Origin: Bispira polyomma | Taxonomy: Eukaryota | Length of the DNA stretch: 64,000 nt | Reading direction: 5' to 3' | NCBI GenBank assembly: GCA_965649765.1 | Contig: OZ287754.1 | Location: forward strand, 41,788,001 to 41,852,000 | Part shown: positions 5,781 through 57,543 of the stretch, one piece after another | How positions within the stretch are numbered: the first letter of the stretch is position 1 | How the letters are laid out: every line of letters begins with the position of its first letter | Position numbers and translations under genes: made by a program | Notes under the pieces: generated by a model | Told to the model about the DNA's origin: nothing | The model's input: the letters and a program-made list of their open reading frames with translations, nothing else | The model's database searches: none

Positions 5781-8700
5781 CTACACTTCTTCTCTCTGCC
5801 TCCCCTCCAATGCAAAATGTCCATATGTGTAAACATAATGCCCTCTTTCTCCTAAATTTCTTGCACTGGGTGACCTGTTCTCTGTAAGGTTCACATTGTT
5901 TCCATCATCAAATCCATCATAGTACGGATTATCAACTAGGCTTCCATCCATGCCTGCCAAGTCACCAACATCAAGAGCATCATGAATCCTTGTTGTACCA
6001 TCCTTTATAGGCTCAGCATGTTCTCCACCCTCATTGTTCATATCACCTACCAACTTCATGCCTTCTTCGCTCTTCTTATTACTATCTGGTGATGGTCTGT
6101 ATTGATCATTTTCTACCATTGCTATTCTATTGTCAAAGCTTTTAACATTTTTGGTATTTGGATGATCCGAGTCAAGGTATGATTTACTTGATGGATTTTT
6201 TTGTGCATCATCATCACTTGAAACACGAGCACTCAAATGAGACATTGGCAATGGTTCATCATCAGGTAACATAAATTTGTCTTCACCTCTGACAGTTGAT
6301 AAGCAACATCTGTCAAAACAACAATCATATGTTGTTTAGGTGTACAGATGTATTGAACTTGTATATGCATAATAAAAATGTTGGTAAAAAAATAGTTATA
6401 TACATGAATCATATTTTTGCAAAGAAAGATGAAAGACAAATATAAATAAATAAGACCTAAATTTTTGTCATAGCAAATTCCTCATATTTTTAAACATGGA
6501 TGGTTATTTTGCTTTTTAGACAAGAGCTCACCAATTATAGTCCTGAAGAAACATAAGAAAGTCTACAAACTTACCTGAAGTAGAGCACTGTGCCTATAAT
6601 ACCAACCATTAGACTTATTGGGACAGCAACTGCCAAACCAACAACAGCTACATCAACAAAATAGAATACAATATGAAACTACAGGCAGTCAAAAAGTTTG
6701 CCAGTACATAAATGTATTTTTCACTCATAGATGGCTCCATGTACTTCCAGGTGAGTGAACAAGGTCCTTAATTCATAGAGGGATATGAAGTTAAAATTAA
6801 AATGCCCTCATTGAAGGACCTTGCACAAGGTCTATCCGCTAGCCTTCAGCCCAGTCCTGATAGAGAAACCAAAACATTGTTTTACTGTAAAGGTTACAAC
6901 TCCAGTATCAAGGTCGAGGTAATATTTATGGTGAAATATAAATTTGCCCTGGAAAGTGATGGGCCATGTCAACGGGTAAAAGTGACTAATATTAAGAATT
7001 CTGCCTTTTTTTACTTGTTTTCAAAAAGGACAGGAAAAAAGTATACCCTGAAATATTACAATCATACCATACACATTTAACTTCCCAGAAGCTGCTCTCT
7101 CTCTCTCTCTCTCTCTGTTATTTTTCTAACAAATAAGTAACACACAGAAGTGTATATTGTAGGAACTTTCCAACCAACTGGGGATATTTCTCTACTTTTG
7201 AGTTGCCACATTTACACAAACTGGTCTTGCTGCAGTCTCCCATAAGTTTAAATCAATTCATTATATGAAGGATGTTGCACATCCAACTATCCATAAATAC
7301 TTCAAACAGGTTATCTTGTACTATTTAAACAAGAAACTTGACAACTTTGAGATACTATCTAGTCAACTAAATTTTTGGCAATACAGAAAGGAGGCTATAC
7401 AATAGAAAAGTATTTGGGCCACATTATTGAAATAATAACTTAATTTAGTGAGATAGTATGTTGATTAATTGAGATATTATCTCAATAGATATTTTGTGGA
7501 TGACCCTAATACTTTTCCATAACGCAACAGTATCCAATATATTTTTTTGTTCACTGAGGAAAGACAATATTTTATGAGGCATAGACAAAAAGAGCAATAC
7601 TGACCTACTAGCAAAAAAATCTTTCTGTGACCAACCAGGTTGAAAAGTTTTTTTAGCTTTACACTAGTATTGTGCCTGGAAATGGTATTATGATAGATTG
7701 ATTGATTATGTGTTTAACATTGCTGTCAAGACATTGTATAGGTCATATATCACAACGGGCACTTTTATTGGTGGGGAAAGCAGTGCATACTAGTTAACTA
7801 GTTAGTCAGGATTCTGCACTGTAAAACACCGAGCACTGGCAAGTAAGTCCCAACTTCCCCATATAAAGCCTCTGCCAAGATTCAAACCTATGACCTCATA
7901 GGTGGGAGGCGAGTGTGTTAACTACTATGCCACTGAGTCTCCTATTTTAATATATTGTGACATTTACTATATGTTTTACCTTATTTTGGACCATATCTCA
8001 GTAACACATTTGTAAAAAATAAAGGCAACTTTTAAATTGAAATGAGCTTTTGCCCATGCACAAATATTTGCACAGTAAAAATTGAAAACAGTGAATGAAA
8101 TCCACAAATTGTAAATATGATTTAAAATAGAGCCGTATTTAATTCATGCGATGTATAGATGGCATCCATTGCTTCTTTTCTGCTTCTGTTGCTGACAAAT
8201 ATCTTATAGACTCTCTCACTTTTTTTCTAGATTATTTAGAAGTAAGTGATATTCAAAGATGTTACTGTAAAAATAATACACAATATATATTGCTTTTTGA
8301 AAAAATTTCTATTGCAAGTTACTTTTCTTCAAATATTGCGATATATTGATTTTTCAAAATATCATTATACCCTTACTTTACAGCATACAGTAAACAAAAA
8401 TCAGATTACCGTCTTCGCCATTTGCTGTATTGCATACATATTGTATTTTCACAGTTCTACTCCAGCAACTAATACTATTGCAGGAAGTACGGCATGACCC
8501 CATATATTTGGTGGGTAATGTAATCGTACAACTGTTTCTGCCATTGCATGTAGAGTTGGCAGTTGAAAGAGTCTCTTTTGTCTCACGGATGGCACACAAA
8601 GACTCTTCTTTGAAACTGCAGCATTCTGGTTTGTCGTCGACACAGCTGGAATCTCCAGTTTCTGTGGGTCTTATGTACACTATTTCATCTATGTAATCTA

Positions 8701-8887
8701 TCAGTGCATTGTTGGTGCCACAAGCTAGAGTAATGTGTATATCTAAAGGCTTTTTAGAGTTGTCATAATCTTTAAAACACTCCTCTTGTATGTTCAAAGA
8801 AAGGCAGCTTGCTGTGACATTGTTGTAACTGCAATATATACAGCACAACATACAAAATATTATTATCCTTGTCATTTTGACAAACAT
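5781..8887 (-). CDS. Receptor paralog A: signal peptide, SUEL-like 12-Cys domain, TM, NPxY/Tyr-rich tail; exons 8887-8410, 6647-6575, 6309-5781 (~359 aa)
   Basis: GT/AG junctions in phases 1 and 2; total 1080 nt, in frame; TM AVVGLAVAVPISLMVGIIGTVLYF; tail has DNPYY and GHYVYTYGHFALEGR; close paralog of B. The TM acceptor is inferred to be shifted by 9 nt. Confidence 0.72.
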
Positions 8888-9849: not shown

Positions 9850-11127
9850 CCCTTTGTCTCAAGTCTAAGGCTCAAAATGTCCATAAGTGTAAACATAATG
9901 CCCTCCTCTAGTGTCATCTACAGCCATTTTATAAGCAACACAAGTTGAGATTTCCTTTATTTTCTCACCGCCACCACTAGCGCATTCTGTATTCCGTTAT
10001 ATTTTCATTATTGCATCAACTTCTTTACCTTCGTAATATGGATTCTCTTCCAGTTTTATATGTTCATGGTAATCACATCTAATTTTGACAGTTGGCCATA
10101 GCATGAGTATTGTTAATTCCCAACCATGCCATTTGTTGCTTTGACAACTGCATTAGAGTTCTGCCTTTCAGAATGTGCCGCATCATGTCTTCTAACTTAT
10201 TTCATGCTTTTCAGGGAAATTTGAGACAGATAAAGAGCCCTCCAGTGTTTTCGTATTGGAGCTTAATCATTGGTCCACAGTATTTTTAAAAAGAAAATGA
10301 ATCATTATTTCCCCAAAAAGATAATAGTGTGACACATATATTGTTAGTTAAAGATATGTCAGCCAACAAATTAACATAAACCCCTTGACGACTTTGTCCA
10401 TCGCTAGCAGTCAATGGATAAGTTTATTCGCCAGTGCCATATGTCTGTCGGACATCAGTTGACAGTATAAAATATAACCATATAGCCATAGGAATAAAAT
10501 TCATTTGGGTACACTGTATTTGACGTTAAGAAAATTTGTGTCATTAATGATGTAAATAGTTGTTGCAAAAACGTCACCAAAGTGTAGCATTTTTCCTTGG
10601 TATTGTTGAATTGCTCTCCATCGGAGTTGAAGGGGCCAAGAACATTATAGCATTTGTTATTGAAGCCAGTACTTTTGTGTAGATCATTGTATTTCCTGAA
10701 TACATGGTGGCCCTCTGTCATTGGGTCTTATCCCTTGTGACAGGCAAAAGAGCCTCGACAGTTACCGGTGTTGGTATGCTCTACCTGGGTAGTCACAAAA
10801 AGGATAATTAGTGATTTGAATATCAGATTATAGGTTAATAAATGTGATGATTATAAATTTGAATTTAATAACATACATCTACTAATTGTATGTTGGTGAC
10901 TGACACAAATTTTAGTGTAGATTGCATCTTGCTGGCTTAAAAAATGAGAAAAAGAATTTTGCTGATTTTTTTCTGATTTATTCGTTTAGTAGTTGGTATA
11001 TAACAATGACAAGCTATCGACCATATATTAGGTAAGTATACTTTTACTCACCTCATCAATACCAAAGTACAAATTATTCCAGTCAACAAGCTCACTGGTA
11101 TCATTACAATTAAAGAAGCAGTTAACT
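9850..11127 (-). pseudogene. Receptor pseudogene C: 3' part of a D-type gene (TM exon 11127-11052 plus decayed tail exon ~10283-9850)
   Basis: TM exon intact and very similar to D; tail acceptor AG changed to AA; frameshifting deletion near the exon start; ends GHYVYTYGHFEP*; no ectodomain exon found upstream. Confidence 0.75.
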
Positions 11128-11497
11128 CTAAAATGAAATGAATAGTAAAACATGTCTTTTGACAGCAACATCATGGAAATTGAGGGGAAATTAATAATTT
11201 AATGATGGCTGTCTGATTACTGGGATACTATTCAATATAACAGTAAACCCCTAAGCATTGAACTACAATAGATAGCATGGCTTCCTTGACAAAACGTAAC
11301 CATTAAAATAGGAATCACAAATAAATCAGCTGGTCATGTGCACACAATCTATTTAATAAATTAATCAATCTTACGAACATGCCTGCTTGCCAATCATAAT
11401 AAGGGTATTAATAATCCCTACACCACAAAATAGAGGATTACATTTTCAGTTAATATAGGCTTAGATAGCTTGTAATTTGTGTTTCATACTTTGCTAA

Positions 11498-16590: not shown

Positions 16591-19500
16591 TCAGATGTTT
16601 TTTGTTTCCTGCACTTCTTCTCTCTGCCTCCCCTCTAATCCGAAATGTCCATAAGTGTAAACGTAATGTCCTCCTTTTCCTGAATTTCTTGCACTGGGTG
16701 ACCTCTTTTCTGTATTGCTCGCGTCGTTTCCATCTTCAAATCCATCGTAGTAAGGATTATCCTGTAGGCTTCCATCCATGCCTGCCAAGTCACTAACATT
16801 ACGTGCATCATGTATCCTTGTTGTACTATCCTTTATAGGCTCAGCGTGTTCTCCACCTACATTGTTCATATCACCTACCAACTTCACGCCTTCTTCGTTC
16901 TTCCTAATACTATCTGGTGATGGCCCATATGCCATGTATTGATCATTTTCTACCATTGCTTTTCCATTGTCAAAACTTTTTGACTTTATAACATTTTTGG
17001 CATCTGGGAGATCAGAGTCAAGGTATGATTTATTTGATATATTTTTCTGAATATGTGCATCATCATCACTTGAAACACGAGCACTCAAATTAGACATTGG
17101 CAATGGTTCATCATCGGATGACTTTATTTTGTCATCACCTTTGACAATTGATGAGCAACATCTGTCAAAGCAACAGTTATATGTTGTTTAGGTGTACAGT
17201 TGTATTGAACTTGTATAGTTTTGGTAAAATTATACTCATAAAAATTGAAGGTTCTTTTAGCTTTTTTAGACAAGAACTCAATAATTATAGTCATATACTA
17301 ATATAAGAAAATCTACAAACTTACTGAAAGTAGAGCAGTGTGCCCATAATACCAACTATTAGACTTATCGGGACAGCAACTGCCAAACCAACAACAGATA
17401 CATCAACTGAAAAAAATACAATATGAAACTAAAGCAATGACACTACTATTAGTGTTGCAAAGAAGACACTCAGGATTGCATTATTTAAAGGTATAGTAAC
17501 GTAAACACAGAAATACGTCGCCGATAAATCATACTGCATTTGCGCAAGTTTATTTTTATCTGTATACACACTATGGCAGCCTTAAAATGCTTCTTCAGTA
17601 AGGTTTTCACCTATTTTTATGTGTCTAAACAATTTAAAATGTTAATACTTTGCTATAAAACTATAAAAACACCCATGTAACCATTCTTATATTGTGACGT
17701 CACACAATTTGACCTCTATGGAGGAACGTCATATTTGTAAACAAATCTCGAAGACAAGCCTTTCTATTGTGACACAATACAAGTATGCAGACATATGCAG
17801 ACATTATATACACTAAACAACTTCAGAAAACATGTATATTATTTTGAATGATTTACATTTTTCAATATGTTTGCTTATTTTATAAAAACACAGAATACAA
17901 AACATGTTTTTGTTTAGGAGAGTGTAACTAATGTTTTTCTAAAATTATCCCCATTTTTGTGCACTTTTTAAAAAAGAATTCATTCAAAATAATGCTGATG
18001 TTTTCCTTTTTCTATTCATGTACAATACTTCAGTATTGATCCCTTTTTGGTATATGAATTGTGTCACGTTTGTGAAGCATGTACTTTGAAAATATTACCC
18101 ATTTTAGTTACAATTTTATACACGGCTATATGTATTGTATGTCTCAAGATACCTATTAAAATGATACGTAAAATATATGAATTAGTATATAATTAAAATA
18201 TATGTCATTCTTTATTATTTCTACTCCTGGAAATGTAAATATGTTATCTATAAATCGAGTTTAAGGCCACAAAGAAAAAGTTGTGCAGTTTCTGAGAAGC
18301 TCGAGCACATATGACTGTTTATCGGCGATCGTTTTTTGTTTTTACGTTACTAAAACCTTGACATCAGCAACACATTTTGCTCCAGGCATCAACATACGGT
18401 AAAGTGGGCCTTGTGGCGGAATGTTTATACACTCACTTCCTACCTCTACAGTCGTGGGTTTGAATCTCGGGCCCTGGTGTGTATGTGGGAAAGTTGACTT
18501 ATAGATTTGCAGAAGGTCAGTGGCTTGCAAGGCAAAAAAACCTTGACTATCTACCCTGCTCTAATATCCTCCACCAGTGAACTGCCCATCGTGATATGGA
18601 AAGACATGTCAAAGTGACTTTAAACCTAAACTAAACCCAGCCTGAGGAAAAACGTGTATTTACCAAAACGTGTGGTGAGGCCTGCTAGGACATTGGTGAG
18701 AGTTTTTGTGCTAGGCCAAATCAGTTTCATAGAAAGTATAGTACCCACTAGAGACGCCCTGGTAGTACTGTAATTTATCAAAAATACTCAAACTATTCTT
18801 GGTAGACACCATCTGTAAATTAATCTAAAATACAGTTTTTACTAATTCTATAATGTTTATATCCAAGTAGATTTTAGGGCCTTTGTTACCTCTCTGATCA
18901 CATCCACTGTTTGTCCTAGCCCCAGCAAATACACTTTCTGTGGCACTACGGTCACTTGTTAATTCTGCAGTGGCCGTTTCAGTTGACAAACCGCCACCTC
19001 CAGCATCTGTTTAAAGAATTTATTTGGAATTATGTATACTTTAACAGGCATACATTTGCTGCTTGTTGAAATTGTTTGACACAGACACAAAGAGACACAA
19101 AAGAATGTTGTACTTAATCGAACACTGAGTTAATATCTATAGGCGCATCATTCCTGATAGATTAGTTTGGATGACTCCATTGTTTTGAATATGTCTGGTG
19201 TTATACAGCAGGAAGTCAGAGCAGTATAAGTGATTAAGATAAGCGGATTTTTGACAAGTGTTGTCATAAACTTGTCCACTTTTTTAGGTTTTCATGAAAA
19301 ATTAATCTTAAATTTTAAGCTCTGATAAAACACAATAAAAAAACAGCTTTACTTCACTTGAAACATATTTACTTATAATTACCAAAGATTTTGCTGGCAT
19401 TTAAGAAGCTTGAAAAAAGTGGACAAGTTTATAACATCGGACAAGATTATGACAACCCATGTAAGTACATGCTGAAAGAATACAATTATACCATACGCAA

Positions 19501-25500: not shown

Positions 25501-27291
25501 TACAGAACAAGGCACTTTGCCCTGTTTCTGCTCTCACAAAACTCTTGCAATCTAGGGACTTGTCCGCCACTGCTCCCTTGTTCGTATGTTTTTCCCCTCC
25601 CTACCACATAATTATTGACTCTCATATTAGATCAGCACTCAAGAGTGTATTACAACATTTAGGTATTGACCATACTTACCATGATTTCCATACCTTCCGT
25701 AGGTTGGGGGCTTCACTGGCATTTAACAACAACGTGTCATTGCAGCACATAATGTCCCACGGCCTTTGGCGCAGCTCGGCCATTTAGGCCTACCTTCAGC
25801 ACTTCTCCTCACAAGCTGCAGTCATCCCTACCACTTTTGCATCCATTATTCCCTCTGCCCTCTAGTTTGGGTTTGGGTATATTTTAAAATTTTACAAGTT
25901 AAATTTTAAACTACTTTTTACCTACCTCTATATAGAACTAACCTGTACAGACTAAACTTCTCCAAACAATATAACATTTATATTTGACCTACTACTTACT
26001 TCAAGGTCAACTTATACTCACTTGGGAACTGTGCACATCACGACCCAATAGGGGTCTGATAGTTCAGTTTCTAAACCCCCTCCTTCTTATTCTAACACTA
26101 CCTTAAATAGCTTAGGTATCCTCTCCTTTCTTCTCTCTATCCCTTTGTGGCATCCAATTAGGGGCCTCTCTGCTTTGACTTATTTATCCCCCTTTCCACC
26201 ATATTGAATTAAATTCCCACTTTTCTTCCCCTACTTCCCTCCATTCTTGGGAACTGATTTTATAAAAACAAAGCATACAAAACATCTTTCTGTTTAGAAG
26301 AGTGTAACTTAAATGTTTTTCTAAAATTATCCGTGTTTTATGCTTCTTTTAAAAAAAGAATTCATTCAAAATAATGTTGATGTTATCCTTTTTCTATTCA
26401 TGCAGAATACTTCAGTATTGATCCCTTTTTGGTATATGAATTATTTCACGTTTGTGAAGCATGTACTTTGAAAATATTACCTATTTTAGTTATAATTTTA
26501 CACACTGCTATATGTATTGAATGTCTCAAGATACCTATTAAAACGATACGTAAAATATATGAAATAGTATATAATTAAAATATATGTAATTCTTTACTAA
26601 TTCTACTTATGAAAATGTAAATATGTTATCCATAAATCAAGTTTAAGACAAAAAAGAAAAAGTTGTGCAATTGCTGAGAAGGTCGAGGACACATAACGTG
26701 GTTCTCGGCGATCGTTCTATGCGTTTACGTCACTAAAGCCTTAATTTTTTAATATATCTTTACACCTTTACTTTACATGTATACAGCAAAAATCAGCTTA
26801 CTGTATTGGCCAGTTGTATTGCAGACATATTTGATTTTCACCGTTCTACTCCAGCAACTATAAAAGGCTGAAAGCAAACATTTACTGCTGCATGTCCCCA
26901 TATTTTTGATGGGTAGTGTTATCGTGCAACTGTTTTTGCCTTTGCATTTAGAGTTGGCAGTTAAAAGAGTATTTTGTGTCTCACGGATGGCACACATATA
27001 ATGTTCTTTGAAACTGTGGCAGCATTCTGGTTCCTTCCTGTCAACGCAGCTTGAATCTCCAGCCTCTCTGGGTCTTAAGTACACTATTTCCTCTATGTAT
27101 TCTATCAGCGAATTGTTGGTGTCACAAGAAAACATAGTAAGGTTTATATTTAAAGGCCTAGAGTCCTCATAATCATTAAAACATTCCTCTCGTATGTGCA
27201 AAGAAAGGTAGCTTGCCCTGACAGTGTTGTAACTGCAATATATACAGCACAAAATACAAAATATTATTATCCTTGTCATTTTGACAAACAT
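16591..27291 (-). CDS. Receptor paralog B; exons 27291-26802, 19006-18890, 17406-17325, 17161-16591 (~419 aa)
   Basis: Canonical junctions (A|gtaagc, aacag|AT, G|gtaaca, ttcag|TT, CA|gtaagt, gacag|A); 1260 nt in frame; Ser/Thr stalk exon; TM VSVVGLAVAVPISLIVGIMGTLLYF; DNPYY and GHYVYTYGHF motifs. Confidence 0.8.
17490..18357. mobile_element. Kolobok-like non-autonomous element, second copy
   Basis: ggtatagtaacgtaaac...ttacgttactaaaacc TIRs; colinear with 20364-20758 plus 26257-26740. Confidence 0.7.
18405..18635 (+). mobile_element. tRNA-derived SINE; related copies at ~3236-3450 (+), ~7715-7940 (-), ~20030-20220 (-), ~42870-43055 (+)
   Basis: gggtttgaatctc B-box; shared gtatgtgggaaagttg...cagtggt...cctccacca core. 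Confidence 0.65.
21058..22135 (+). pseudogene. gag-like ORF of the Ngaro element (frameshift and stops), with C-terminal Cys/His cluster
   Basis: ORFs 21058-21261 and 21141-21833; WPNEG and LTLPQW motifs shared with the other copies; CKF..C..YICSYC..H..C downstream. Confidence 0.7.
23207..24883 (+). pseudogene. Reverse transcriptase / RNase H of the Ngaro element
   Basis: KTDVSRAFRNL, AFGW, YIDD, FLGIDID, DACLTG, LEMLN, WCDN, NIKADALS motifs; broken between 23617 and 23750. Confidence 0.9.
24890..25865 (+). pseudogene. Tyrosine recombinase of the Ngaro element (frameshifts and stops)
   Basis: FSGFLRMSN, LKWAKN, CPV, HTFRRLGA, HGLWRSSAI*AY: the R..K..HxxR..H/W..Y catalytic signature. Confidence 0.88.
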
Positions 27292-31800: not shown

Positions 31801-31969
31801 AAAATAATCAAGTGAACATTTACCATAATAGCATTCTTTCAAGGTATTATACACATACTGTGCAGCTGTCTTATAGATGCGCGAAGAAATATATTTAAGT
31901 AATCATGAACCAAAATGGTTCGACGAGCGCACTTGTGTACACCCACAGGTTATAACATAATCTATTTTA

Positions 31970-35683: not shown

Positions 35684-38600
35684 TTACCTTTCTCTTCCCT
35701 CAAGTTGAAAATGTCCATAAGTGTACACATAATTCCCTCCTCTGGTGTCATTTACAGCCGTTTTATCTGCCACAGACTTGGAGATTCTCTCCATTTTGTC
35801 ACTGCAATCATAAAAAGGATTATCCTCAAGAAAAGCACCTAGATTGTCAATACAAGCATCACAAATGGGAACATTTTGTGTTGCTTTATATTTCCCTTCT
35901 TCTGGATCCACATCTTTACCTGCGTAATATGGATTCTCTTCCAGTTTTGTATGATCGTGGTTGATGGTCTTGGTCATCACATTTGTTTTTGATGGTTGGC
36001 CATAGCATGAGTACTCTTGGTTTTCAACCATGGCATCGGTTACGTTAACAACCATATTGGAGTTCTGTACATGAGAATGTGCCGCATCATGTCCTCTGTT
36101 TGTAGTTGGCACAACATCAATATCTGCATATTGGTCTCCCATTCCAGAAATTACTTCATGATTTTCAGAGGATTTTGAGATAGATGACGAGGCCATTGGT
36201 GTTTTCATATTGGAGCTTGTGTGCTTTTTAATTTCTGGTGCACAGTATCTATATAAAATTAAAAAAAATAATCATCATTTCCAAAATGTAATTTCCTAAT
36301 TTATTGAAATTAAAATTAAACTGTGTACTGACAGATATATTGTTAGTATATATTGTGCCATAAAACAAATAAACCTGAAAAACATTGTAGCATTTGTTAT
36401 TGAAGCCAGAACTTTTGTGTAGTTCATAGAATCTCATTAATACATGGTGGCTCTCTGTCATTGGGTCCTACACCCAGTAACAGGCTGAAGAGCTCTGACA
36501 GTTTCCGGTGCTGTTATGCTCTACCTCGGTAGTCATGAAAAGGTTAATTAGTGCTTCAAATATCTAATTAAAGGTTGATACATGTTCTGAATATAAATTT
36601 GAATGCAATACAGTTACCACTTGTACGTTGGCGACAGACACAAATTTGCATGTAGATTGTATTTTGCTGGTTTAAAAAATGAATATTGCTAATTCATTTG
36701 TTTACTAGTTGGTATATAACAATGACAAACTATCAACCACATATTAGGTGATTATACTTTCACTTACCTCAAAAATACCAGAGTAACAATTATTCCAGTC
36801 AACAAGCTCACCGGTATCATTACAACTAAAGCAGCAGCTAACCCTAAAATGAAATGATAGTAAAACTAATATAATAGGTTACTGACAGCACCAGCATGGA
36901 ACTACCTCAGAATAATGATTTAGGAAATTTCTGGGGTTTTTTTGGTATTAAACAGGAAATTACTTAGAAAGAGAAAAAACACATGCTTATTGTAACTGGG
37001 TGGCAGGTAATCCCTTTTGTCAAATAAGAAAGATCAGTATCTGACTCAGAATGTCTATGCATAGGAATTGTTGATCGACAAAATCTGCCACATGCACACA
37101 AAGGTGACATTGACATTTTTTATAGATAAGACCAGGGAAGCAACTGACAATATAATAGTTATGGAGGACTTGTTTTTGACTGTATCTTGGGTAACCATGT
37201 ACTGGCGGATACAAAATGGCTCGAATAACAAATGGCCACTTAATGCTGGTGTCTTCTGTCATTTGGATCCTGTCTCCAGAAGCAGGCTACAGAACCTTTG
37301 TGGCCTTGATGAATGTTCATCCTCAAGCCTGTTTCTTCAGTTAGGATATGACATATTCTTATCACCTATTAAAGCATATTTTACTTCCTTGTATGTTGTT
37401 AAAATGATCACACTCTGCCATTAATTCAAGACACTTGGATTCATCAGTTAAAAGGTTACTTTATTATGTGGTTTTATATTCGTTCTTGCCTTTTTGGCCT
37501 GAAACTTTTTCATGGGTAATTTATACAAATTTGAGATTTTCCCCATATAATTTTTTTTGTACACATTCATGTGGCAAATTAATTACTTTCTTCTTGCTTT
37601 GCTAATTTGACAAGTCTGAAGTGGTATTCACGTTTTGAATAAATACTTCAGTGCTCTGATCTTTAAGCCCCATGACCAATCTGTTTAATGATACACTTGC
37701 TTCGAAATTGTATCTGACCATCAAACAATTTATATTTCTTGTCTAAAAACAAGTATCTTCCATAATATCACTTGTCAGCTGATATAACAGTCACTGGTGC
37801 TGGTTAGTTGAACTTGGGCAATCCAGAAATGGTTAATTAGCACTTTGAATACCAGATGATTATATAGGAAGATAAATGAGTGTAAATTTGAATATAATAC
37901 AACAATACGAGGCATTAGACAAAGGGGTTTGCATTCAATTGAACTGTAAACAAAGACATATAATTGATATTTATTCTGGGTTAGCAAGTTTAAAAGTAGA
38001 GCTTTCTATTTCATTTTTTATTCCAATCCAGGTTAATACGATCGGTTATAAAATGATCGTAATAGTTCTACCTGAAAAAATATTACGGTAATTCAAGCAT
38101 TATTAATGCAGTGCGTACTATTAGAATTATTCATGTTCAATCTCTTAATCTGAGACTTTTATTTTATGAAATATTATTTTTACCAAACATCACAAAGATA
38201 TTAGCCTCAATCTATTAATACTTATTTTATTATTACCTGTATTTTTACAAGACAGTTGATCATCTTCACTATCAACTGTCACTGTTTCTGTTTTGAATAA
38301 AACATAGCACCATATCATTCAGATATAATATGTACTATATACAAGACATAAAATATATGTGAGGGCTAAATTGTTTAATGTAGCCAGAACTTGCAGACAC
38401 TATCATTCATATATCAATATACCATATTCTAAAGCAAATTCTAATATAGCAATTGTAGCAATGACAATTTAATTGTACCTTTACAATGGTGTTATGTTAA
38501 TTATTGCCATAAATAGATATATTTTTACATGTTTATGGTTGATTTATTCTTAGATGTACTTTAATGAGAATAATACTAAAAAAGCAGTCCCTACCACTTC

Positions 38601-40924
38601 CAAATTAAGAATAACAAATCTATGAGGGTATATATGTGTGTATTTATAAAATGTATGTGTAAAATTGTGTAAAATATCAGTTCTATACTACTGGCTATGT
38701 ACATTTTTTGGTAAAGAATACAATAATAAAAGGTTACAACATTTAATACTCAAGCTGAGGTCACATGCTTATTTTCCAGTTTAAGTTTATGGTTATACCT
38801 TATTTAACTTTAAGTTTTAACTTAAAGGCAATTTTGAGTTTAAATTTAAGTTGCTCTTAAACTAATGACGAAACACCTGAACAAAGACGTTTAAGGTGAC
38901 CCTAACTTGAGTGGTCACCAAAGTTAACTTAAACTGTGCCAGTTTAAGGTTACCTAACCCACAAGTGTGGATTTTGAATTTAAGATGCCAATGTTTTAAT
39001 ACTCAGTTGACCTAAACTTTTCCAATGGTTTATAATTTTTGACAAATGATACATGAAGACAGCCTCAGTTAAAATACCGATGACTATAAAATTACTTGTT
39101 TTCTACTTTAAAAACAAAGATCCAGTAAAGAGGTGCATTGTCATACCACTTATAGTGTTTAAGCAAATTCCTTACTAACAACCTTGTACAATAATTAGAT
39201 GCGATTCAAGACATAACATAATTTCCAATTGAGCTCATACCTTTTAAATGTCTTCTGTTTGAGCATAGGATTACGATGTACACCTCAATTATACGTATCT
39301 TACACTAACCTACTCCAAGGGAATAGGGTGGTAAGAAATTAGAAGTTCCTGCCACACTTGCCTGAACTTATTTACTAATAAGTCTAGTCCCTAGTTCGAC
39401 TCCCGCCAATGCCATATGAACACACAACACAAAATGGCCATGTTGTTTGACTATCTCTTCTTGACTTTGATGAGTGTCTTAATATCTATTGTAGTGCTGT
39501 ATAATTAGTTTATTTGGGTTAACGGTGCCTTCAACACATTTTGTGTCATATAACAATGGGAAGTTCACTGTGAAGAAATGAGAACTGGGTAGTTGGTAAT
39601 GATTTTTCTGCACCACAAAACACTGGTCTTCAATAAGTCTACTGCTACACACACATGGAACCACATAATTACAGAGGTGGGATGCAAGTGTGTTAACGTT
39701 ACACCACCAAAGCCCCCGGAAGCGCTTTAGAAGTTTAACACATCAGGCAAGACTAAGTGCATTCAGGAGTGATACCTCTTTAAGCAAGCGTTGTCTGCTT
39801 TAAAAGGGGGTTCCACACTCAGGATTTGGTTCCCGACCTTCCCAACTTTGTGATCGATAACAGGAAAAACGGCAAAACATATAGGTCGGGGGCCAAAAAC
39901 GAGGTGATCGGGAAGGTTGGGAAGAATATAAGAAAAGTTTGATATTTTGTAAAAGTGTCCCGACTTGTGTCCACGACCTCTAAAAACGGGAAGGTCGGCT
40001 TTGGCGAATAAGTTCGATCCTATTGGTGATACGTTTTGTCTGTTAGGTCTTATTATCACTCCTGGCATGTCCTAACGCTGGCCCGTCGAAACGTAAAAGT
40101 CGGGGGCAAAAACGGGGTGGTCGGGAGGAATTTATGTATGAAGACGCATATAAAAGCCCATTTTGTCAGTCTCGATAACGTAAATCAGTTTAAAACTTGT
40201 TTACCTTTGCGACATCAAATCGACTTGAAAATCAGGCCCATTTTGCCGATCAAACTTGAATGTGGAACACCCCTTTAGGTTTGACTCAGTAAACATGCAC
40301 CTTCCTTATGAACCGTATTGTGTACATAGAACTGTTATTAGCCATTAACTCCTTAGGGGATGCCTGGACATCAATTTGGCATTAAATTGAAATTATTTAT
40401 TACAATAACTATAGTAAATCAAAAATAATAATCTCACCACATACTGCCTCTTCTTTATAGCAAACATATTTAACCTTCACCTGCCTGCTCCAGCAGGAGT
40501 TCCTTTGAATGTTACACCATGTTCTGCATTGACTCATATGAAATCCACTTATAGTCAGATTACAGCTACCTGCCTCTTTACACTGATCAGTCATATTTAG
40601 AAACAATTTGTCACTCTGATCAAACATCACAAGACATATGTCATTGTGTTTAAAGTTACAGCATTCCGTATCACCGGGTGTCCCACCTGAGCAGTCCCAG
40701 TCTCCAGGAAATGATGGCCTGATAAAGGCTATTTCAAGTATAGTTATCCAATTAGCAGAGCCACATGTTATATCTACATTTATGTCCTCTGGTTGATTAT
40801 CTTTATATGTATTAAAACAACCACCATATGTTATGTAAGTTAGGTTGTATGCTGTGTTTCTGTTTATATAGTATAGTGCAAGTATTGCTATTGATGACAA
40901 ACTTCTGTGTTTAACCAAATGCAT
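35684..40924 (-). CDS. Receptor paralog D; exons 40924-40438, 38287-38237, 36843-36768, 36248-35684 (~392 aa)
   Basis: Canonical GT/AG junctions, phases 1,1,2; 1179 nt in frame; TM LAAALVVMIPVSLLTGIIVTLVFL; tail has ENPYY, DNPFY and GNYVYTYGHFQLEGR. Confidence 0.8.
39804..40274. mobile_element. Harbinger-like MITE in intron 1 of gene D
   Basis: agggggttccacactcagg...cttgaatgtggaacacccct TIRs; TAA/TTA flanks. Confidence 0.65.
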
Positions 40925-40936: not shown

Positions 40937-40969
<33 letters not shown>

Positions 40970-42865: not shown

Positions 42866-43084
42866 CTATGTTAAAAGCGTTCACTTCATAATCACAGGCC
42901 TCTCACATATGTAGGTTTATTTCTGGGGGGTTTTTTTCCTTCACATGGGAAAGTTTATCATGTATTTGCCATAGGCCAGTGGTTTCCCACACTGTTAAAT
43001 CTGACCTTCATAGTATGACCTAACCTGTTCAAAGCCACGTAAAAGCCAACTAAATTCAAGTCAAAATCCAAACTATACAATCTT

Positions 43085-46000
43085 CTATGTCACATCTCTT
43101 TGTCTGCCCTCCAGGCCAAAATATCCATAGGTATACATGTAATTCCCCCCTCTGTCAGTTGGCTGATTCACCTTGTCACCTTGATCCTCTTCCTTGTTAT
43201 GATCCCCGCTTTCATAATATGGGTTTTCCTCCAAGACAACTTTTTGGTCTTCAAGTTTATTGGCAAGCGAAGTATGCCTCAATTTGTCTAATACTTTATC
43301 ATTATCGTCTGAGCCTTCGTAATATGAATTTTCTTTAAGTGTCAGCTCATTCTTAGTTTCATCTTTTCTGAATTGTCTATCTAGTTGAGAATCTCCAGTG
43401 GTAATTTGTGGATTTAAATGATTCTTTTCTACATTGATGTCATCATACTGATCTTTATTATAGTCTAAACTGTTTTGCTGAACCTTAAAAGGTTTGTTAC
43501 CACTGTTTGTAGCATTGCCATCTCTATCTGATAAACAACACCTAAAATGAAATGCATTAATTTTAATGTCTGGATATTTGTGTACTTTAGAACATCAAAA
43601 GGTTTACAATTGACCTGTAAAGACTTGATAGATGGGGATTTGGGTGATTCCTCTTTTGTTAAATCACATCAGGGTTGGTATTTGCAAAGATTACTTTATT
43701 TACATTGTCACAATGAATTTGATTGTCTCAAATATTGTTTTAAGGAATCTGATTTGTTAAGACTATGCAAGCTCTAAGAACTGTATTCTAATGATACACT
43801 TTTAACCTCGATTGTTCATTTTTTTTCTGTGGTAAGAGATATGTTGGTCATGGATCTCCAGACACCCTTATATCCCCACATAGCGGGTTAAGAAGATTAA
43901 GTCACCCTAGCCAAAGTTTATATTTGAAAGAACCTGCTATAAAAAAGAAGGACATTCGGCAGGTAGTCGGTGAGCTGATTTGAAACTTGGGTCATTCAGT
44001 AGCCAAGTTGGGCGGGTAACAATCAACTTCAGCCAGTTTCTCCCATGGCCCAAGATCTAAAGAACTCACCGTATGATCAGTAAAGTGCCCGCAATTCCAG
44101 CTAGTAAACACACAGGAACTGCAACTCCCAACGCTATGATTATTCCTACACGTAGAGTATTTGTAATAAAAGTAATATTTACCTGGGAAAATATTATTTG
44201 ATTGGATGAGATTAAGGTGAATTAAATATTTTATTCTGTTTTTAACAAATTTTATATTTGTCTTAGTAGTAGTTTGTAAAATAAAAATTGTTATATTTTG
44301 TTTTTCTTTAGTGATACTTAACTTTCACATGGAACCTGATTTATAAAGTTCTCATTTATTGTTTATATTAAATTTCTATACTATTGCTACAATCGATGTT
44401 CCGGCATCTTATGTGGTACATATGCAAATCACTATCCAAAAAGAGTAGTCTGATAGAATGAAATGGTATGCCAGAACCTTGACTTGATACAGATCGATTT
44501 TTAATATTTTTTGCAATTCTATAATTTTTGTTTCAGTGAATATACTGACAGGGAGATTATTCCATTCAGAAAGTGCTATGACAATAAGATTAATTATCTA
44601 GAAGCTGTTAGTTCTAGGGCAACAAGTAAGAGGTGGAGAGACTATATTTCCTCAGGTGGGATTGCTAAGTAATCATCCTTTATGAATATATTAGGATATT
44701 TGTTTTAAATTTAATGTAGAGCTAGGTTGGTGGCCTGTGTAGCTTTTGACACAGACAGGTCATATGTGAGCATCGGCCAACTTGATTCTGCAATGATTAT
44801 TCTTTCTTTTTACAGCTTGTTTATTTTCACTTTGTTAATACCATATGGTAGAGAATTACAGTAGTTAAGTCAGCTTATAATCAATGTATTAGCAACTACA
44901 ACAGCATTTAACAAATGTGAATTGATTTAAACTTCTTCTTATTGACACCGAAATACAAACGCTGCCAAACAAAATAAGGAAGTCTATAAAACGTTATAAC
45001 AAAAGATATATGGATTTACACCTTTTCGAAAGTGGCCCCATTGGCACATAATTTTGGGTTAATACATATATTTATAAAATAACCTTATTTTCAATCCTTC
45101 CATTACAAGTTTCTAAATAAAATTCCTAATTGCAACCATAATTAATATAATTGGAATATTAGAGATAGCCCGTTATGCAACTATTGCAGATTATTTGACA
45201 CTATTGAACAGCATCTATATTACTGCAAAGATTCCAATGTCTTTCAGGGGAAACAAATACGTGGATCAACAAGGTCATGAACAGTGAGAATTGTGAATAT
45301 TCTGTCTGTGAAATTTAATTAGGGGTAACTGTATCTGTATAATACTGGAAAACCTCCTAATAAAGTAACTCTCCCAGGAAGAGAGTGTGTGATGGTAATT
45401 TTTTGGTGTATATTGACTTTTAGTCGTGCTTTTAACTGATCAAAAGAGACACTATTGTCTATTTCGCCATTGAGGTTATTCCACAATGGTATTGTTTGTG
45501 AGAAGAATGAAAATTTGTAGGCGTCACAGTTTGATCCAATAGTTCTCTACTGCAGATTGTGTTTCTTTCAGGTAGAGGTATATGGCCACTCCAGGTGCTC
45601 TTTTCTGCCTACTGCTACTGTTATATTTACAATTTTGAAAAAATAACGAATTTGAATTTGGATATTTAACGTCCACTCTAGTACCTTTTAGTAGGTTATA
45701 TTGGGATGGGTAGTTGGAAATGCTGGAGGAAACACTGCATACAGTCGGTCAAGGTTCTGCAGAGAAACCAGCGGCCCACAGTAAGGAACTACCACCTTTC
45801 CCACATAGGCATCGACGGGATCCAAACTCACGCCGCCCAGAGGTGAAAGACCAGTGATTGTGAAGCGCAATGCTTGCTAACCAATAGGCCACTGCAGCCC
45901 CCCTTGAAAAAATAACGAGACTGGTTATATGGGTATATAGGTATATGAACAACTAAACAACTGCCCCTACCTGTTTGACTGTTTTTGCTTTTGTCTGTAG

Positions 46001-47395
46001 CATTCTCTGCTTCTAGAGTTGATTCTGGAGGGTGGAATCAATTACATATTTAGAAAAAGTATGGTTGTAATTGTATTGTTTATTTGTTGTATTTTATTCA
46101 AATTTATACTCATTTATCTACCTTCATCTCATATTCAAAGTACTAATATTTAAAGCACTAATTATTTTCTTGACTGCTAACCAGCAACCATAAAGTAGCA
46201 TTTCCCTAAATAAAGAGAGAGGCTTGTGGATTGCCATTACCTTACCGTCCCCAAGGTTATTAACCCTGCAACTGGGAATAGGACAAAATGTCCAAAAACT
46301 GCTACTTAAGGGGGTCATCCAAGCCACTATTCATATGCCTTTACATGGTCACCCTATGCTGGGATTGAGCTCATGTCCTTTGTGTTCCTAAGCGAGTGTT
46401 TTACCCACTGAGACACAGTGGTATATAATGGTAGTAATAATTTAATGGACTCATTTAGACTTGTTATGTCTATAGCTTTTTTTCTGTAATAAAGGTCCAT
46501 CGTTAAGTAAGGTCCCCCCCATTTAAAGAAAATTTTGTATCACTTAATACCAATGTTTCAGGTACCATACTAAAATAGAATGGAAAACACATCTCTTTCA
46601 GGCAGTGTTGAAATTAGTAATAATATGATTTGTCTTCAATAATTTAATTATAATGTAGATCAGCATCTGCATTTTATTGGCCTTACGGTTATACAAACAG
46701 TAATTTTGAGGGTAGTTTAGTTGTGTTATACATATTACTATGATCTTTAACAATATGTTACAGCGCCACATATCAACATTGTTTTCTTTAATAATAGCCT
46801 CCCTTTTGGAAAACGCAAAGCACTGTATATAAGGCTACATGATATTGTGTTACTAAATATATTTTAATGTTAATGATTTTGTTACAACTTGTAACTTACC
46901 AGTTCTCTTGTAGCATGTGTAGGTTACTTTAGCCGTTCTGGCCCAACAGGATCCATCAAAGCCACTGGCCTTACAAGAAACTCGAATTTTACAGTCATTC
47001 ATATGCAATGGGCTTATGGTTAACAGACACTCCTCCTTTTCTTTGCAAGTATCAGTAGCATTTATAGCTAATGTATCATTTGCCTGGTAAGACAATAAAC
47101 ATACGGCATTGTATTCAAAGCTACAGCATCTGGTGTCAGACTCATTTATACAAACCTTGTCTCCCATACCATATGGTCTGATATATGTCACCTCAAGTAT
47201 ATGGACCATATCTGAAGGCTCACATGACAATGTAAGGTTGATATCCCTCGGCGGTGCTGTGTGTTTAGTTGTAGAATCCCAAAAACAGCCTTGCACTGTC
47301 CCACCAACTGTAGTTAACCTCATGACTTGGCTGTGAATATATATCAGAAAAAAACCTATACCAAACCAGTGCCGGTTTATGTTGGAAATAAACAT
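43085..47395 (-). CDS. Receptor paralog E; exons 47395-46900, 46024-45971, 44145-44070, 43541-43085 (~360 aa)
   Basis: Canonical junctions, phases 1,1,2; 1083 nt in frame; TM IIIALGVAVPVCLLAGIAGTLLII; tail has ENSYY, ENPYY and GNYMYTYGYFGLEGR. Confidence 0.8.
45400..45634 (-). mobile_element. CR1/L2-group LINE ORF2 C-terminal fragment
   Basis: Translates to CDAYKFSFFSQTIPLWNNL, typical of the ORF2 C-terminus. Confidence 0.6.
45650..45903 (-). mobile_element. tRNA-derived SINE with 15-bp TSD
   Basis: TSD ttgaaaaaataacga at 45635-45649 and 45904-45918; A-box-like tggcctattgg, B-box-like gagtttggatcc; caaatt repeat tail. Confidence 0.8.
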
Positions 47396-52810: not shown

Positions 52811-55800
52811 TCAAAGTACACTGCCATTGGTGTCCTTTGTCAGTTCTCTGTGCCTTCCTTCAAGTCTAAAATGTCCATATGTGTACACATAATTCCCCTC
52901 TCTGTCCTTATCACTAGACTGTTTATTCTTGTTATTTTCTGTTTCCAGTTCAAGGTCATCAGCGCCATCATAATATGGATTATCAGACAGTTCTACCTCT
53001 TCTCCTGTGATTTCTGTTCTGTTTTTATTTCCTGCCTGTTCAAGGTCATCAGCGCCATCATAGTAAGGATTATCAGACAGTTCTACAGCTTCTCCTCTGA
53101 CTACTGTTCCGGTACCTTTCGCTGGTTTTTCAATCTCCTCATGAGCGGCCTCTTTCAGATCTCCAAAACCTTCATAATATGGATTTTCATTCAGATCTTC
53201 TTTTTCTTCTTCTGCCATGGTTGGCATACAGTAGGTGTCATCATCAAGCTCAGAATCTTTGCTTGTTTCTTCTATTCCAGCACCTTTCTTTGGTTCTTCA
53301 AGTTCCTCATGCACTGGTTGCTGGGATTCTCCCAAACCTTCGTAATAAGGATTTTTACTTAGCTCTCTTACATTGATGGATTCTTTCTTTAAACTTGGTT
53401 TACATGCATCCTCCTGCAGTATAGTATACTCTCCCTTTGTGTTTGGTTGGTCCACTTGTTTAGGAGAACAATAATCATTTGTCTTTGGATCCGCATCATC
53501 ATACATATTATCTGTAGAAGTTCTCATCATATTTGTTTCAGCATGGTTACTTGTTCTATATATTGACGAGTGACACTTGTTTTTGGCTGGTGATGAGGCA
53601 TATCTAAAAAGTTATTATCATCAGTACAGAAGTTTATAATGAACAGAACTAACAATGACGTGTGTTTTTTTATTCCATATTTTTAGTTAAACGTTTTACT
53701 AGAGTGTGCTTATATATATTTGTATTTGGAAACAATAACAATGGTTATAGTTTGAAATATTTTAATAAAACTAAAAAAACTATAATGAAATGACTGAATC
53801 TGTTCTTTAACACTACATGCATCACTACTTTACCTAGACAAACCATAGCTAATTCATTCTTACCTGGAATAAAGAATATGTGAGATTACCCCTCCAAAAA
53901 AACTGATAGGAATCAACACCGCCAAAATGACTGCAACAACTGAAACACACAATACATTGCTTTAATTATTTCAATCTCCGAATATTTAATTTTATGAACT
54001 CAGTTTCATTCTTTTCATGTCTTATTCCAAATTGTCTCCAAATTAAATCCAAATTTTTTTACCGACCCACTCTGATAATGTGATCCAGATTATCACCCTC
54101 ACAAAGTTTTGATAATGGCGCTAAATTCTAAAAATAAACTTAATGTCAGCTGGCCAAGAACTTAGATTAAACAGACTATAGGATGCTAGACACTTTTAAT
54201 TTCTGGCAATAACCATAATTATGTTATTTACCATTACAAATTTATTTTCTATAAGCTTAAGATTTCTTTGAAAACCTTTAAAAAGAATTGATTACCTAAA
54301 TACTGGCTACTAGATGCCTGTTTTAAATCTTCACATGCTGCTTGTCCTTTGGCTGTAGGATTTTCACTGGCACTGACTGTAGTTGTAGCTGGCAAAACTG
54401 CTGAAACACAGGAAACTACAAGTTTATTTACAGTGATTTTCACTAAGAAACAGTAGTATCATGGTATCCCACCTAAATCACTAGATGTAAATCTAGGTAT
54501 TAAACAGCAGTGGAACATCAACCACAGTTCTATGCTCAAAAGTACGTATGTACAGCACAAACTATAAATCATGAACACCAAGGCTTTTGACTAGCAGATG
54601 ACGGCATTTGTTGAATGCTGAAGTAGTCTTTAAGCAACTCCAGTTGTCTGTAACCTATTACTGAAAATTGTTCTTCAGTTCCCAGCAATAGTTTTATCTT
54701 GGGATCAAAAGGGTAAGTAGTTTTGGTAGTCTTAGGCATATGAGGGTTTTTATATCAGTGCCAACCTTGGGTTCCAGAATCCATTATTTTGACATCACTA
54801 TCTGAAGTTAGGCTTTAAGATTACAAATAAGTACATCTTTTTACCAAAAAAGATGCAATTTTGGACTTCGTCTACTGCTATAGACCATTCAGGGGTCACT
54901 GGTTGTGTCTGATGCATTATGGTTAAAGCTTGCCCCTTATTTTGCATACAATGGTTAATTAATTTTGTAACTAATCTAAAGGTGTGTCTTTTTAACATAC
55001 AGTACTTAAAGCAGTAATAGTTAATTATTATAAGAACAGCTGACAGGGGTCTTCAAAATTTAGCATCTCAATGTTCAAAAATACCAGAATATAAAAAAGT
55101 TCTAGACTTTTTTGGTATTGACTGGACCTTTGTCCAGAATTTAGAGCAGACATATGCAGAGCTGTCATAAATTAGGAACCATAAAAAGATCTATCAGCCA
55201 ACGTAAAATGTCACCACAGTCAACGTCACAATTAACATGTGGATGACATCAGATAATATACCATTTCTTTACGTCACAAACTTGGAGGGTCTTTCCCACA
55301 TTGTCACGGAGATATTAGCTTTGCCAGGTATTTCTCGTATAATCTCAAATGCCTAAGTCTCCATGCACACATCCCTCACAATTAAAAAAACAAAAGGGGG
55401 GTCTATTATTAAATAATTTACTTAACATATTAATCTTGTTTCCTTAACAAGTAACAGATAATTTCATGACAAGTACATATTGGAACTATATTGTTTATTC
55501 TCATAATTCAAAACGGTATCTGTGAGGGATTGGTTAGCCTGCAAAACGATGGCGTTGTGAGGATGTGTGTGTTTCCACACCTCAAAGCCTAGTGAACAGG
55601 TAGTTTCAAGTATAATATATAATACATGTGATAATACAATACCATTTACCACAAAGTTCATGTCTTATGTCACTATGTATTGGATAAAATATAACTTTTA
55701 CCTGTTGTTGGTCTTCCTGGTGTTTCTGTATTCCTACTGTTGGTGATTTCCCTAGTCATTTCACTGGATGCTGAAGTAATCTTCGTGGAAGGCATTGTTG

Positions 55801-57543
55801 ACAATGTAACTGTGGTTGTGTTTGTCGTTGCTTCAGTTGTTGATGATGCTGTGCTTTGGGCCATTCTAGTTGTGGGGCATTCTGTATAGAAGTATAGTAC
55901 AACCTCTATTATCTGAACCTCAGTTATCCGAATACTCAATTTATGAACCCATTTTTATTTCTAGAAAAATAATGATTTCTCACTGTTTTATACAGAACTG
56001 CCTCTTCTATTTTATGAATCATCACTTATGCAAACAAAATGTTGCTGTCCCAACATTTTCAGACAATAGAGGTTTTGCAATTGTGACACTTTTTACTGCA
56101 GCATTTTTGTTGAGTGACAAACTTTTCCTAGATATTATTATTATATTTATTGGTTCACATAGCTTAAATATTTTCTTTCCGAAACCTGCCCAACATTAAT
56201 ACCAAGCAAGCTATACCAATTTGGTTGGCAGTAAGAGTTATACCCATGTTAAACCCATTCATTAAATTTTCACGAATAAATATATCCTTTAAATAAGCAA
56301 AAACCAAACCAAGACACAGGATGGCAGAAGGAAAAGAATGGCTCCCAGGTCTTATAGGACATTAAAACTCAGTTCTTACCACACTGTGGACAATCACTTG
56401 AAGTACTTGTAGTACAGGGATTCTCAGTATGGGGGGTTGGCGGCTCTGAACGGTCACAAGCTACAAAAATAAGAAATGTTCACATAGCTATGGACCCTTG
56501 CTTAAGGTAACAATACTTGTTTTGATTATATACAAGACCTGCCAATATAACTGATAGGTATTTTTTTAACAAATATATCTAAGTAGATTTCACTGTTTAT
56601 AATAGTTCAACTTTTAAAAAACAAACAAAAGTAGTATAAATACTCTTAAATGTGGTTTAACTATGACAAAGCTGTGCTAATTAAGTAGACTTAACCCTAT
56701 GCAAAAGTCTCACACATTATTGCTTGTATAATCATATTGGATGTTTTGTGTTTGTATTTGATATATATCTAAATGCAATATTTACTCACTGAATCTGTGC
56801 CTAAAAAGTAACAGGAACAAGTACAACATTTTATCACTACCATTTTCTTTGTAAAGCTACGAGTTAAAGATATGTACAGTAGTTTTCATTGAAGTTTATC
56901 TCAGATACCAGTGCATATTGATTTGTATTCAAAAGTTACTTTGGCCTTGTTGACCAATTTGAAATTGATATTTTCCTGGTATAATTGTTATGGTAATGTA
57001 ATTAGTTGAATGTAATTTAACATTCGATTTCTTACAATCGTTCCTACAGAGGTAGTTCAACTGTAGTAATCTTGCCCAACACCATAGATTGTTTTTATTG
57101 TTCGTCTTGCAGTCCTTCTGACAGTCTTTGTCTAATTGTACTGACCCCATTTCTGTTGTACAAGTTGTTTGATTCTGGCAATTATTTATGATTTTCATGA
57201 TTGTTGTAAACTTTAGTGAAACTATACATTTTCTGATGATACTGTCCTCTTGTTCCCAGCTACCTGCATCACAACATTGATTATATGTAGTGGCTTCAGC
57301 ACAAGGCTGGTCACTCCTCAGACGTGGTCTTATATAGAATCCATTGATGACATCGATTATAGAATCCTGGCAGTTTAGGGTTATGTTTATAGTACCTTGT
57401 GGCTTTCTGGAAGTTTCCGTCCAAAAACATTGTGTCTTAGACTTGTATTCTAGCAAGTCTGCATGTAACAAAGATTTAAGAAAACATATTCCAATAATTT
57501 GTGTTTTTATCCAATAAAAAACTTGTTTACCAGTAGGATACAT
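52811..57543 (-). CDS. Receptor paralog F with long mucin-like stalk; exons 57543-57036, 56460-56380, 55881-55702, 54400-54296, 53939-53864, 53603-52811 (~580 aa)
   Basis: Canonical junctions; stalk exons of 81, 180 and 105 nt all phase 1-1; Thr/Ser-rich exon; TM VVAVILAVLIPISFFGGVISHILY; four NPYY motifs and GNYVYTYGHFRLEGR; 1743 nt in frame. Confidence 0.8.
55892..56085. mobile_element. Tc1/mariner-pogo-like MITE; related fragment at ~1120-1278
   Basis: agtacaacctctattatctgaa...ttcagacaatagaggtt TIRs. Confidence 0.55.

Follow-up and report, generated by a model that had tools for sequence, protein, structure and literature searches.

A multigene family of predicted single-pass receptors built on a remodelled SUEL/RBL domain in Bispira polyomma

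A 64,000-nucleotide stretch of Bispira polyomma DNA (assembly GCA_965649765.1, contig OZ287754.1, positions 41,788,001 to 41,852,000 of the forward strand; hereafter the window) carries five genes of an intact, undescribed multigene family of predicted single-pass receptors, whose ectodomain derives from the SUEL/rhamnose-binding lectin (RBL) domain. The genes are designated A, B, D, E and F; these letters are our own and may differ from those of an earlier, sequence-only reading of the same DNA. Profile comparisons and structural models leave little doubt that the ancestry and fold of the domain are SUEL/RBL, and the replacements at its sugar site make it very probable that canonical rhamnose/galactose binding has been lost. 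As for the ligand, the sequence features incline us somewhat towards one of protein type, coupled to tyrosine signalling. A literature search identified no paper describing the family (CW.R signature, three insertions together with added Cys in a graded series, NPxY/YxYTYGHF tail), most subscription papers and supplements lying outside its scope.

A twelve-cysteine ectodomain related to SUEL/RBL lectins

Six-frame translation of the window revealed five minus-strand open frames in which a hydrophobic N-terminus (signal peptide) precedes a Cys-rich domain (Table 1). All five domains terminate in CW[SA]R-x5-Y-x-C, and CW[SA]R occurs just five times in the six frames, once per gene. Every trimmed domain has exactly 12 Cys, invariant in the five-domain alignment together with an F after the first Cys (C1), RP, D, W, R and Y. 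Identity to the gene A domain ranges from 25 to 70%, falling to 25-37% between subfamilies. The Cys pattern put forward in the sequence-only reading is present in all five genes, except that its "L.C" element reads FSC in B and ITC in D; the outer limits of that reading coincide with the last base of gene A exon 1 (8410) and the ATG of gene F (57543). Recurrence of the same scaffold in 14 further aligned loci of the genome and in 24 database proteins indicates that the pattern is not due to chance.

Downstream of its domain exon, each gene has a short transmembrane exon and then a large acidic one. In silico splicing joined these into intact single-pass frames in all five cases, with GT-AG introns in phase 1 and then phase 2, yielding predicted proteins of 359 (A), 380 (B), 375 (D), 342 (E) and 545 (F) amino acids, each with one domain of the family type; near-equivalent splice solutions numbered four for gene D and two for gene F. 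A simple splice scan, which short exons could escape, found no convincing additional stalk exons in A, B, D or E. The exons of gene A were reproduced without differences in three DNA-like contig sets, which contain no splice joints.

Table 1. Members and remnants of the family in the window (window positions; exons as predicted)
Feature	Position	Strand	Description
Gene A, open frame	8908-8381	minus	domain-bearing
Gene A, exon 1	8410..8887	minus	signal peptide and 12-Cys SUEL-like domain (C1-C12 at 8779-8432)
Gene A, transmembrane exon	6575..6647	minus	phase 1 to phase 2
Gene A, cytoplasmic exon	5781..6309	minus	1 NPxY, terminal YVYTYGHF
Gene B, open frame	27312-26776	minus	domain-bearing
Gene B, exon 1	26802..27291	minus	signal peptide and 12-Cys domain (27183-26821)
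Gene B, transmembrane exon	17325..17406	minus	
Gene B, cytoplasmic exon	16591..17161	minus	1 NPxY, YVYTYGHF
Gene D, open frame	40963-40412	minus	domain-bearing
Gene D, exon 1	40438..40924	minus	signal peptide and 12-Cys domain (40819-40460)
Gene D, transmembrane exon	36768..36843	minus	
Gene D, cytoplasmic exon	35684..36248	minus	YADI, 2 NPxY, YVYTYGHF
Gene E, open frame	47425-46856	minus	domain-bearing
Gene E, exon 1	46900..47395	minus	signal peptide and 12-Cys domain (47287-46913)
Gene E, transmembrane exon	44070..44145	minus	
Gene E, cytoplasmic exon	43085..43541	minus	YDDI, 1 NPxY, YMYTYGYF
Gene F, open frame	57546-56932	minus	domain-bearing
Gene F, exon 1	57036..57543	minus	signal peptide and 12-Cys domain (57429-57046)
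Gene F, stalk exon 1	56380..56460	minus	predicted, S/T/P-rich
Gene F, stalk exon 2	55702..55881	minus	predicted, S/T-rich, mucin-like
Gene F, transmembrane exon	53864..53939	minus	
Gene F, cytoplasmic exon	52811..53603	minus	YTIL, 4 NPxY in internal repeats, YVYTYGHF
Remnant C	9850..11170	minus	bounds approximate; transmembrane exon (11170-11051) D-like, tail with stops and frameshifts
Remnant G	60585..61248	minus	F-like transmembrane exon (61248-61150) and tail ending early

The relationship to SUEL lectins was assessed with an alignment (A3) of 43 rows, 19 from the genome itself (1.035 Gb, 75 contigs) and 24 from protein databases, leaving out the frameshifted or split copies L003, L009 and L024. 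Comparison by hhalign of the family profile with a profile of 30 SUEL domains from the same genome gave probabilities of 96.0% (E 4.5e-9) and 96.2%. Used against PDB sequences, the 43-row profile produced nine matches at E<=10 (best E 0.0016), all nine to RBL lectins or latrophilins; the five-row alignment produced none, the RBL proteins being reached only by the larger profile. AlphaFold models of domains A and F (mean predicted local distance difference test scores 87.9 and 88.9) have the same strand order and one long helix. In exhaustive structure alignments the same eight RBL-type entries came out on top for both A (Z 6.0-6.8) and F (Z 5.3-7.2): three latrophilin Lec domains, CSL3, SUL-I, the C-terminal domain of rice beta-galactosidase, P113, and 8cdd chain A, classed as RBL-like by its listing description alone. 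Unrelated folds lie below a gap, at Z<=4.9 (A) and Z<=4.2 (F). Of the 43 rows, 40-43 have C1, C2, C6-C9 and C12, spaced much as in SUELs; more than one loop-1 Cys could serve as the third core Cys. PF02140, the Pfam family of SUEL domains, matches 10 of the 43 relatives weakly (best E 0.0027), and the top clusters of an ESM Atlas search (scores 0.91-0.93) include it in 10-36% of their members; as the recognition values fall below the threshold of the tool, we take this as a lead only.

A SUEL-like fold, as suggested in the sequence-only reading, is thus borne out by profile comparison, by PDB sequence search and by structure searches with models A and F; latrophilin RBL and CSL3, which that reading had named for superposition, are both among the leading structures. 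The expected relationship to a SUEL profile was recovered by hhalign and by the PDB profile search but not at the PF02140 cut-off, which the window domains fail to reach.

Sugar site, enlarged loops and tyrosine-rich tails

In latrophilin-1, rhamnose is contacted by Glu42, Tyr63, Gly117 and Lys120; loops 1 and 2 are stabilised by the buried residues Arg65 and Lys120 and tied by the Cys41-Cys71 and Cys83-Cys115 bonds (PMC2430599, Vakonakis et al. 2008). Rhamnose binding is undetectable in the K120R, K120A, E42A and E42R mutants and about 80-fold weaker in E42D/Q; changes of Glu42 to F, L or Y are not among the mutants in the parts of PMC2430599 used here. In the family, the Glu42 position (+1 from the first Cys) is occupied by F in 26 rows, L in 8 and Y in 8, with one gap, and the Lys120 position by R in 41 rows and G in one, again with one gap. 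Arg65 is kept in 41 of 43 rows. The Tyr63 position holds Y in 25/43 and F in 10/43 (Y in four of the five window genes), the equivalent of the YGR motif being YIR in A, E and F, YLR in B and FIR in D. The Gly117-Thr-Tyr-Lys120 motif (GTYK) is matched by C-W-[SA]-R at the same seven-residue distance from the last Cys, which puts an Arg at the old sugar-binding Lys position. The Cys of the DPC motif persists as C9, 12 residues after C8 as in SUELs. The earlier proposal of a YGR to YIR change therefore holds for A, E and F; its replacement of DPC and KYL by CW.R does not, the DPC Cys being retained and CW[SA]R standing in place of GTYK. Given that Glu and Lys are both replaced and that the latrophilin-1 K120R, E42A and E42R mutants do not bind, canonical sugar binding has very likely been lost.

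Loss of these residues is common, which lowers the surprise: only 10 of the 30 aligned ordinary SUELs of the same genome, drawn from 150 listed matches and mostly top-scoring, keep both Glu and Lys. The genome also contains a large YGRM..GRC type of SUEL lacking both residues. At least 140 PF02140 matches above cut-off lie on contigs C4, C2, C3, C8 and C12 (L041-L090), many of them in tandem arrays.

Core spacings are those of SUELs (family/SUEL medians of 14/14, 5/5, 12/12 and 7/7 residues). Length differences fall in three segments, the beta1-beta2 turn (19 residues versus 8; range 16-36), loop 1 (27 versus 15; range 20-41) and loop 2 (18 versus 4; range 11-25), whose counterparts in latrophilin-1 form or border the rhamnose pocket (PMC2430599). 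The three insertions all lie at the domain's sugar end, where they make the face of the former pocket larger and contribute the extra Cys. The number of Cys in loop 1 is odd (1, 3 or 5) in 42 of 43 rows, fitting one bond to C1 plus zero to two internal bonds. Cys residues are also lost in pairs: C3 together with one Cys of the CC pair in three 10-Cys proteins (P0021-P0023), and C6 together with C9 in P0017, matching latrophilin Cys83-Cys115. Two other proteins (P0018, P0020) have an extra Cys pair between C1 and C2. From these patterns the core bonds would be C1 to one loop-1 Cys (probably C5), C2-C12, C6-C9 and C7-C8; as judged by Cys co-loss, new bonds C3-C4 and C10-C11 represent the simplest reading. 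Two added disulfides would fit the Cys counts.

The five cytoplasmic tails are acidic and contain nine NPxY motifs, against 0.19 expected and a maximum of three in 5000 shuffles. Each ends in Y[VM]YTYG[HY]F, and single YxxI/L motifs are present in D, E and F. Across nine tails, YxxI/L motifs occur only in isolation, preceded at position -2 by D, G, P, Y, K or Q. Scanned against Pfam, neither the five domains nor the five tails gave a relevant family. Transmembrane and acidic, Tyr-bearing exons also lie behind many dispersed members of the family, on contigs C5, C8, C9 and C10.

The tandem array and the wider family

The window belongs to a cluster some 125 kb long that includes a duplicated F-E-D cassette. 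Between F and its copy F2, the tail exon is 96.6% identical and the domain 76.7%; between E and E2, the upstream region is 95.3% identical and the domain 85.5%. Divergence in the introns adjoining the domain exons is roughly equal to that of the exons themselves, and the D/D2 and A/B pairs display no such contrast with their upstream flanks. These mosaic duplicates speak more for recombination or conversion within the array than for selection acting on the domain. Pairwise Nei-Gojobori ratios of nonsynonymous to synonymous substitution (dN/dS) range from 0.48 to 1.03 for ectodomains and from 0.49 to 0.89 for tails.

Two remnants accompany the intact genes (Table 1). An ectodomain exon was looked for in remnant C and none was found; none was found between remnant G and the next upstream gene either. 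An early tail stop before YxYTYGHF is common to remnant G (60585-60908) and to a gene outside the window, F3 (G000:C7:41906037-41906360), whose ectodomain is otherwise intact and which could be a short-tailed form. At a distance of 0.57 Mb, a frameshifted A-type ectodomain (L003/L125, G000:C7:41227411-41230448, plus strand; 77% identical over 92 residues) is followed by an F-type stalk end and an F-type transmembrane exon, making it a possible chimera. In L009 (G000:C7:41917258-41918497, minus strand) the domain is split within loop 1 between two frames about 600 bases apart, by an intron or an insertion. The first intron of gene B harbours a retrotransposon (21105-25784, plus strand), presumably a DIRS element, with stop-interrupted frames; its reverse transcriptase frame (23657-24880) matches RVT_1 in Pfam and adjoins gag-like and tyrosine-recombinase-like frames. 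Fragments resembling the latter two are found at 30213-34536 and 58542-58898, both on the minus strand. A tandem repeat of about 43 bases (42018-42884) separates genes D and E and recurs in the duplicated cassette.

Single-protein searches of the genome identified further family domains on contigs C7, C10, C9 and C5. The genome also has matches to the erythrocruorin linker that exceed the Pfam cut-off, which would be in keeping with an annelid. The 24 database relatives came from a collection of 1.84 billion protein representatives; the 10 that were looked up are singletons from ENA or Logan. A word-indexed protein search turned up two proteins of nearly the same length and, among longer ones, none; this is weak evidence. 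Searching the genome with the 10-Cys protein P0022 returned no orthologue and a single weak match; P0024 led to a sister group with 14 Cys (17 matches, 11 of them at E<1e-24 on C8 and C9). Members of this group (L130-L140; G000 C8:53.3-58.1 Mb and C9:45.1-45.2 Mb) carry CHSRW and a different transmembrane exon, include near-identical recent copies on C8, and gave no LP-to-RP match. One further locus, L023 (G000:C7:36853886-36854452, plus strand), has an intact frame with 8 Cys and neither RP nor CW.R, and might represent a second remodelling or a decaying copy.

In a 63-row tree, rooted at the midpoint and with long branches on both sides, the 51 family rows split from 12 ordinary SUELs of the same genome with support 97/85. 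Several members from the genome pair with database proteins (L008-P0008, 100/100; L028-P0019, 100/99; L027-P0015, 99/91; L021-P0016, 96/86), so that the subfamilies predate the tandem copies of this genome.

Possible ligands and comparison with known systems

In the reading that we favour, a SUEL/RBL ectodomain devoid of the canonical sugar residues would use three enlarged loops, probably held by the extra disulfides, to recognise another partner, most likely a protein, and the kept Arg residues would do the structural work of Arg65 and Lys120. Once bound, the ligand might cluster the receptor; the NPxY and YxxI/L motifs would then be phosphorylated by tyrosine kinases, and adaptors of the PTB or SH2 type could bring about uptake or signalling. 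Each paralogue would have its own target but the signalling tail would be common to all, in the manner of tandem immune or cell-recognition receptor families. Binding of proteins by the RBL fold is established: latrophilin Lec binds teneurin (PMC6978801) and Plasmodium P113 binds RH5 without a GTY motif (PMC7482062).

A number of observations weigh against this reading. The protein ligand is a deduction from sequence, and the gene models are predictions from in silico splicing. None of the five window domains matches PF02140; Foldseek ranks RBL chains first but yields nothing at E<=0.001 (best 0.0038); and the structure alignments span 83-92 residues with root-mean-square deviations ranging from 3.0 to 4.6 Å, all with Z < 8, moderate scores that result from only about 90 of 133-138 residues being aligned. 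As to the disulfides, hhalign and HMMER pair the third SUEL Cys with C3 rather than C5, and the Cys losses in L006, P0008 and L023 do not simply fit the proposed pairing. Hypervariability of the loops is not supported: at 3.0-3.4 bits of residue entropy they are no more variable than the helix region (3.1) or beta1 (3.3), and only length variation is concentrated there. Positive selection was rejected as a claim, no pair having a dN/dS significantly above 1. None of the nine tails contains a canonical immunoreceptor tyrosine-based activation motif (YxxL/I-x6-8-YxxL/I) or inhibition motif ((S/I/V/L)xYxx(I/V/L)). Finally, with Tyr63 kept as Tyr in 25 of 43 rows and Lys exchanged for another basic residue, the site could have been rebuilt for a glycan.

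The domain might indeed still be a lectin of new specificity, its Tyr, Arg, Trp and the aromatic residue after C1 forming a site for an acidic or extended glycan in pattern-recognition receptors for microbial or self glycans. Sites combining aromatic residues and Arg are common in glycan binding, and the residues around the old pocket are conserved (R in 41/42, W/F/Y in 39/42, Y/F at the Tyr63 position in 35/43). We nevertheless consider such a lectin doubtful. The bidentate Glu is absent from every member, loop 2 varies from 11 to 25 residues and changes from one paralogue to another, which a fixed sugar site would not, and the buried structural roles of Arg65 and Lys120 would explain their conservation without sugar binding, even though PMC2430599 does not exclude an unknown glycan.

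Unlikely, in our estimation, is a set of annelid variable recognition receptors, in which the three SUEL loops would act in antibody-like fashion, stabilised by modular disulfides (10, 12, 14 or 16 Cys), and recombination in the array would swap ectodomain exons onto homogenised tyrosine-motif tails, creating a repertoire for self/non-self or symbiont/pathogen discrimination akin to Hydractinia Alr or the paired receptors of vertebrates. It also appears improbable that the genes encode EVA-1-like guidance co-receptors, developmental or neural, whose endogenous ligands are fixed and whose tandem copies stem from local, non-immune duplication. EVA-1 itself spans the membrane once and has RBL domains without the sugar residues (PMC2430599), and several dispersed members pair strongly with database proteins from other sources, so that subfamilies have been retained. 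Against this, each gene has one domain instead of two; cassette duplication, ectodomain-less remnants and mosaic copies are likelier in recognition families than in guidance receptors; and no relative from a named source was found among the 1.84 billion representatives. A superficial SUEL resemblance, or decay of the copies into genes without function, is very improbable and largely refuted, notwithstanding the lack of Pfam matches for the window domains, the moderate structural scores and the two remnants, because comparisons of four independent kinds lead to SUEL/RBL and nothing else, five intact frames keep 12/12 Cys at 25-37% identity between subfamilies, and 11 of 12 comparisons have a dN/dS below 1, four of them significantly so.

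The role of SUEL-type proteins in lophotrochozoans has been called elusive (PMC8878817). The present family is a clear example from nature of how the binding face of a lectin scaffold can be rebuilt, with graded added Cys and a conserved signalling tail attached. Being invisible to Pfam, its genes will be missed in genome annotations. Should the paralogues bind different proteins, they would constitute a concrete annelid receptor family for immunity or cell recognition and would supply a small scaffold, rich in disulfides, whose loops are tolerant; should they bind only another glycan, they would make a modest addition to lectin diversity.

With the SUEL/RBL lectins (PF02140; CSL3, SUL-I) the family shares the fold, the eight core Cys and their spacings, the Arg of YGR and the terminal Y-x-C. 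It lacks their Glu after C1, the Gly of YGR, the D-P of DPC and GTYK, adds three insertions and 2-8 extra Cys, and stays below the Pfam cut-off; those lectins are secreted, whereas the family members are predicted membrane receptors. The latrophilin (ADGRL) Lec/RBL domains, the best structural matches (Z 6.6-7.2), are likewise attached to a receptor. Latrophilin-1, however, keeps Glu42, Lys120 and 8 Cys, and the family is without the olfactomedin, GAIN and seven-transmembrane regions of latrophilin. CED-1/Draper engulfment receptors are single-pass proteins with an EMI/EGF ectodomain that signal via NPxY and YxxL-type tyrosines; the likeness is one of tail logic only, their ectodomain being unrelated. 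Plasmodium P113 (structural match Z 6.0-6.3) provides a protein-binding RBL fold without the GTY motif; as a parasite protein with two domains and 10-16% identity, it constitutes a parallel case and is no relative by any sequence test. EVA-1/EVA1C, compared here by description and not by sequence, resembles the family in being a single-pass receptor with RBL domains deprived of sugar residues, and non-carbohydrate ligands for such receptor-attached domains were proposed in 2008 (PMC2430599), making a changed ligand an already published idea. EVA-1 has two RBL domains in tandem, an arrangement not seen here, no PF02140 match lying on contig C7 among the matches listed (150 scored of 203 candidates); the family instead combines one remodelled domain with a multi-NPxY tail in a multigene cluster.

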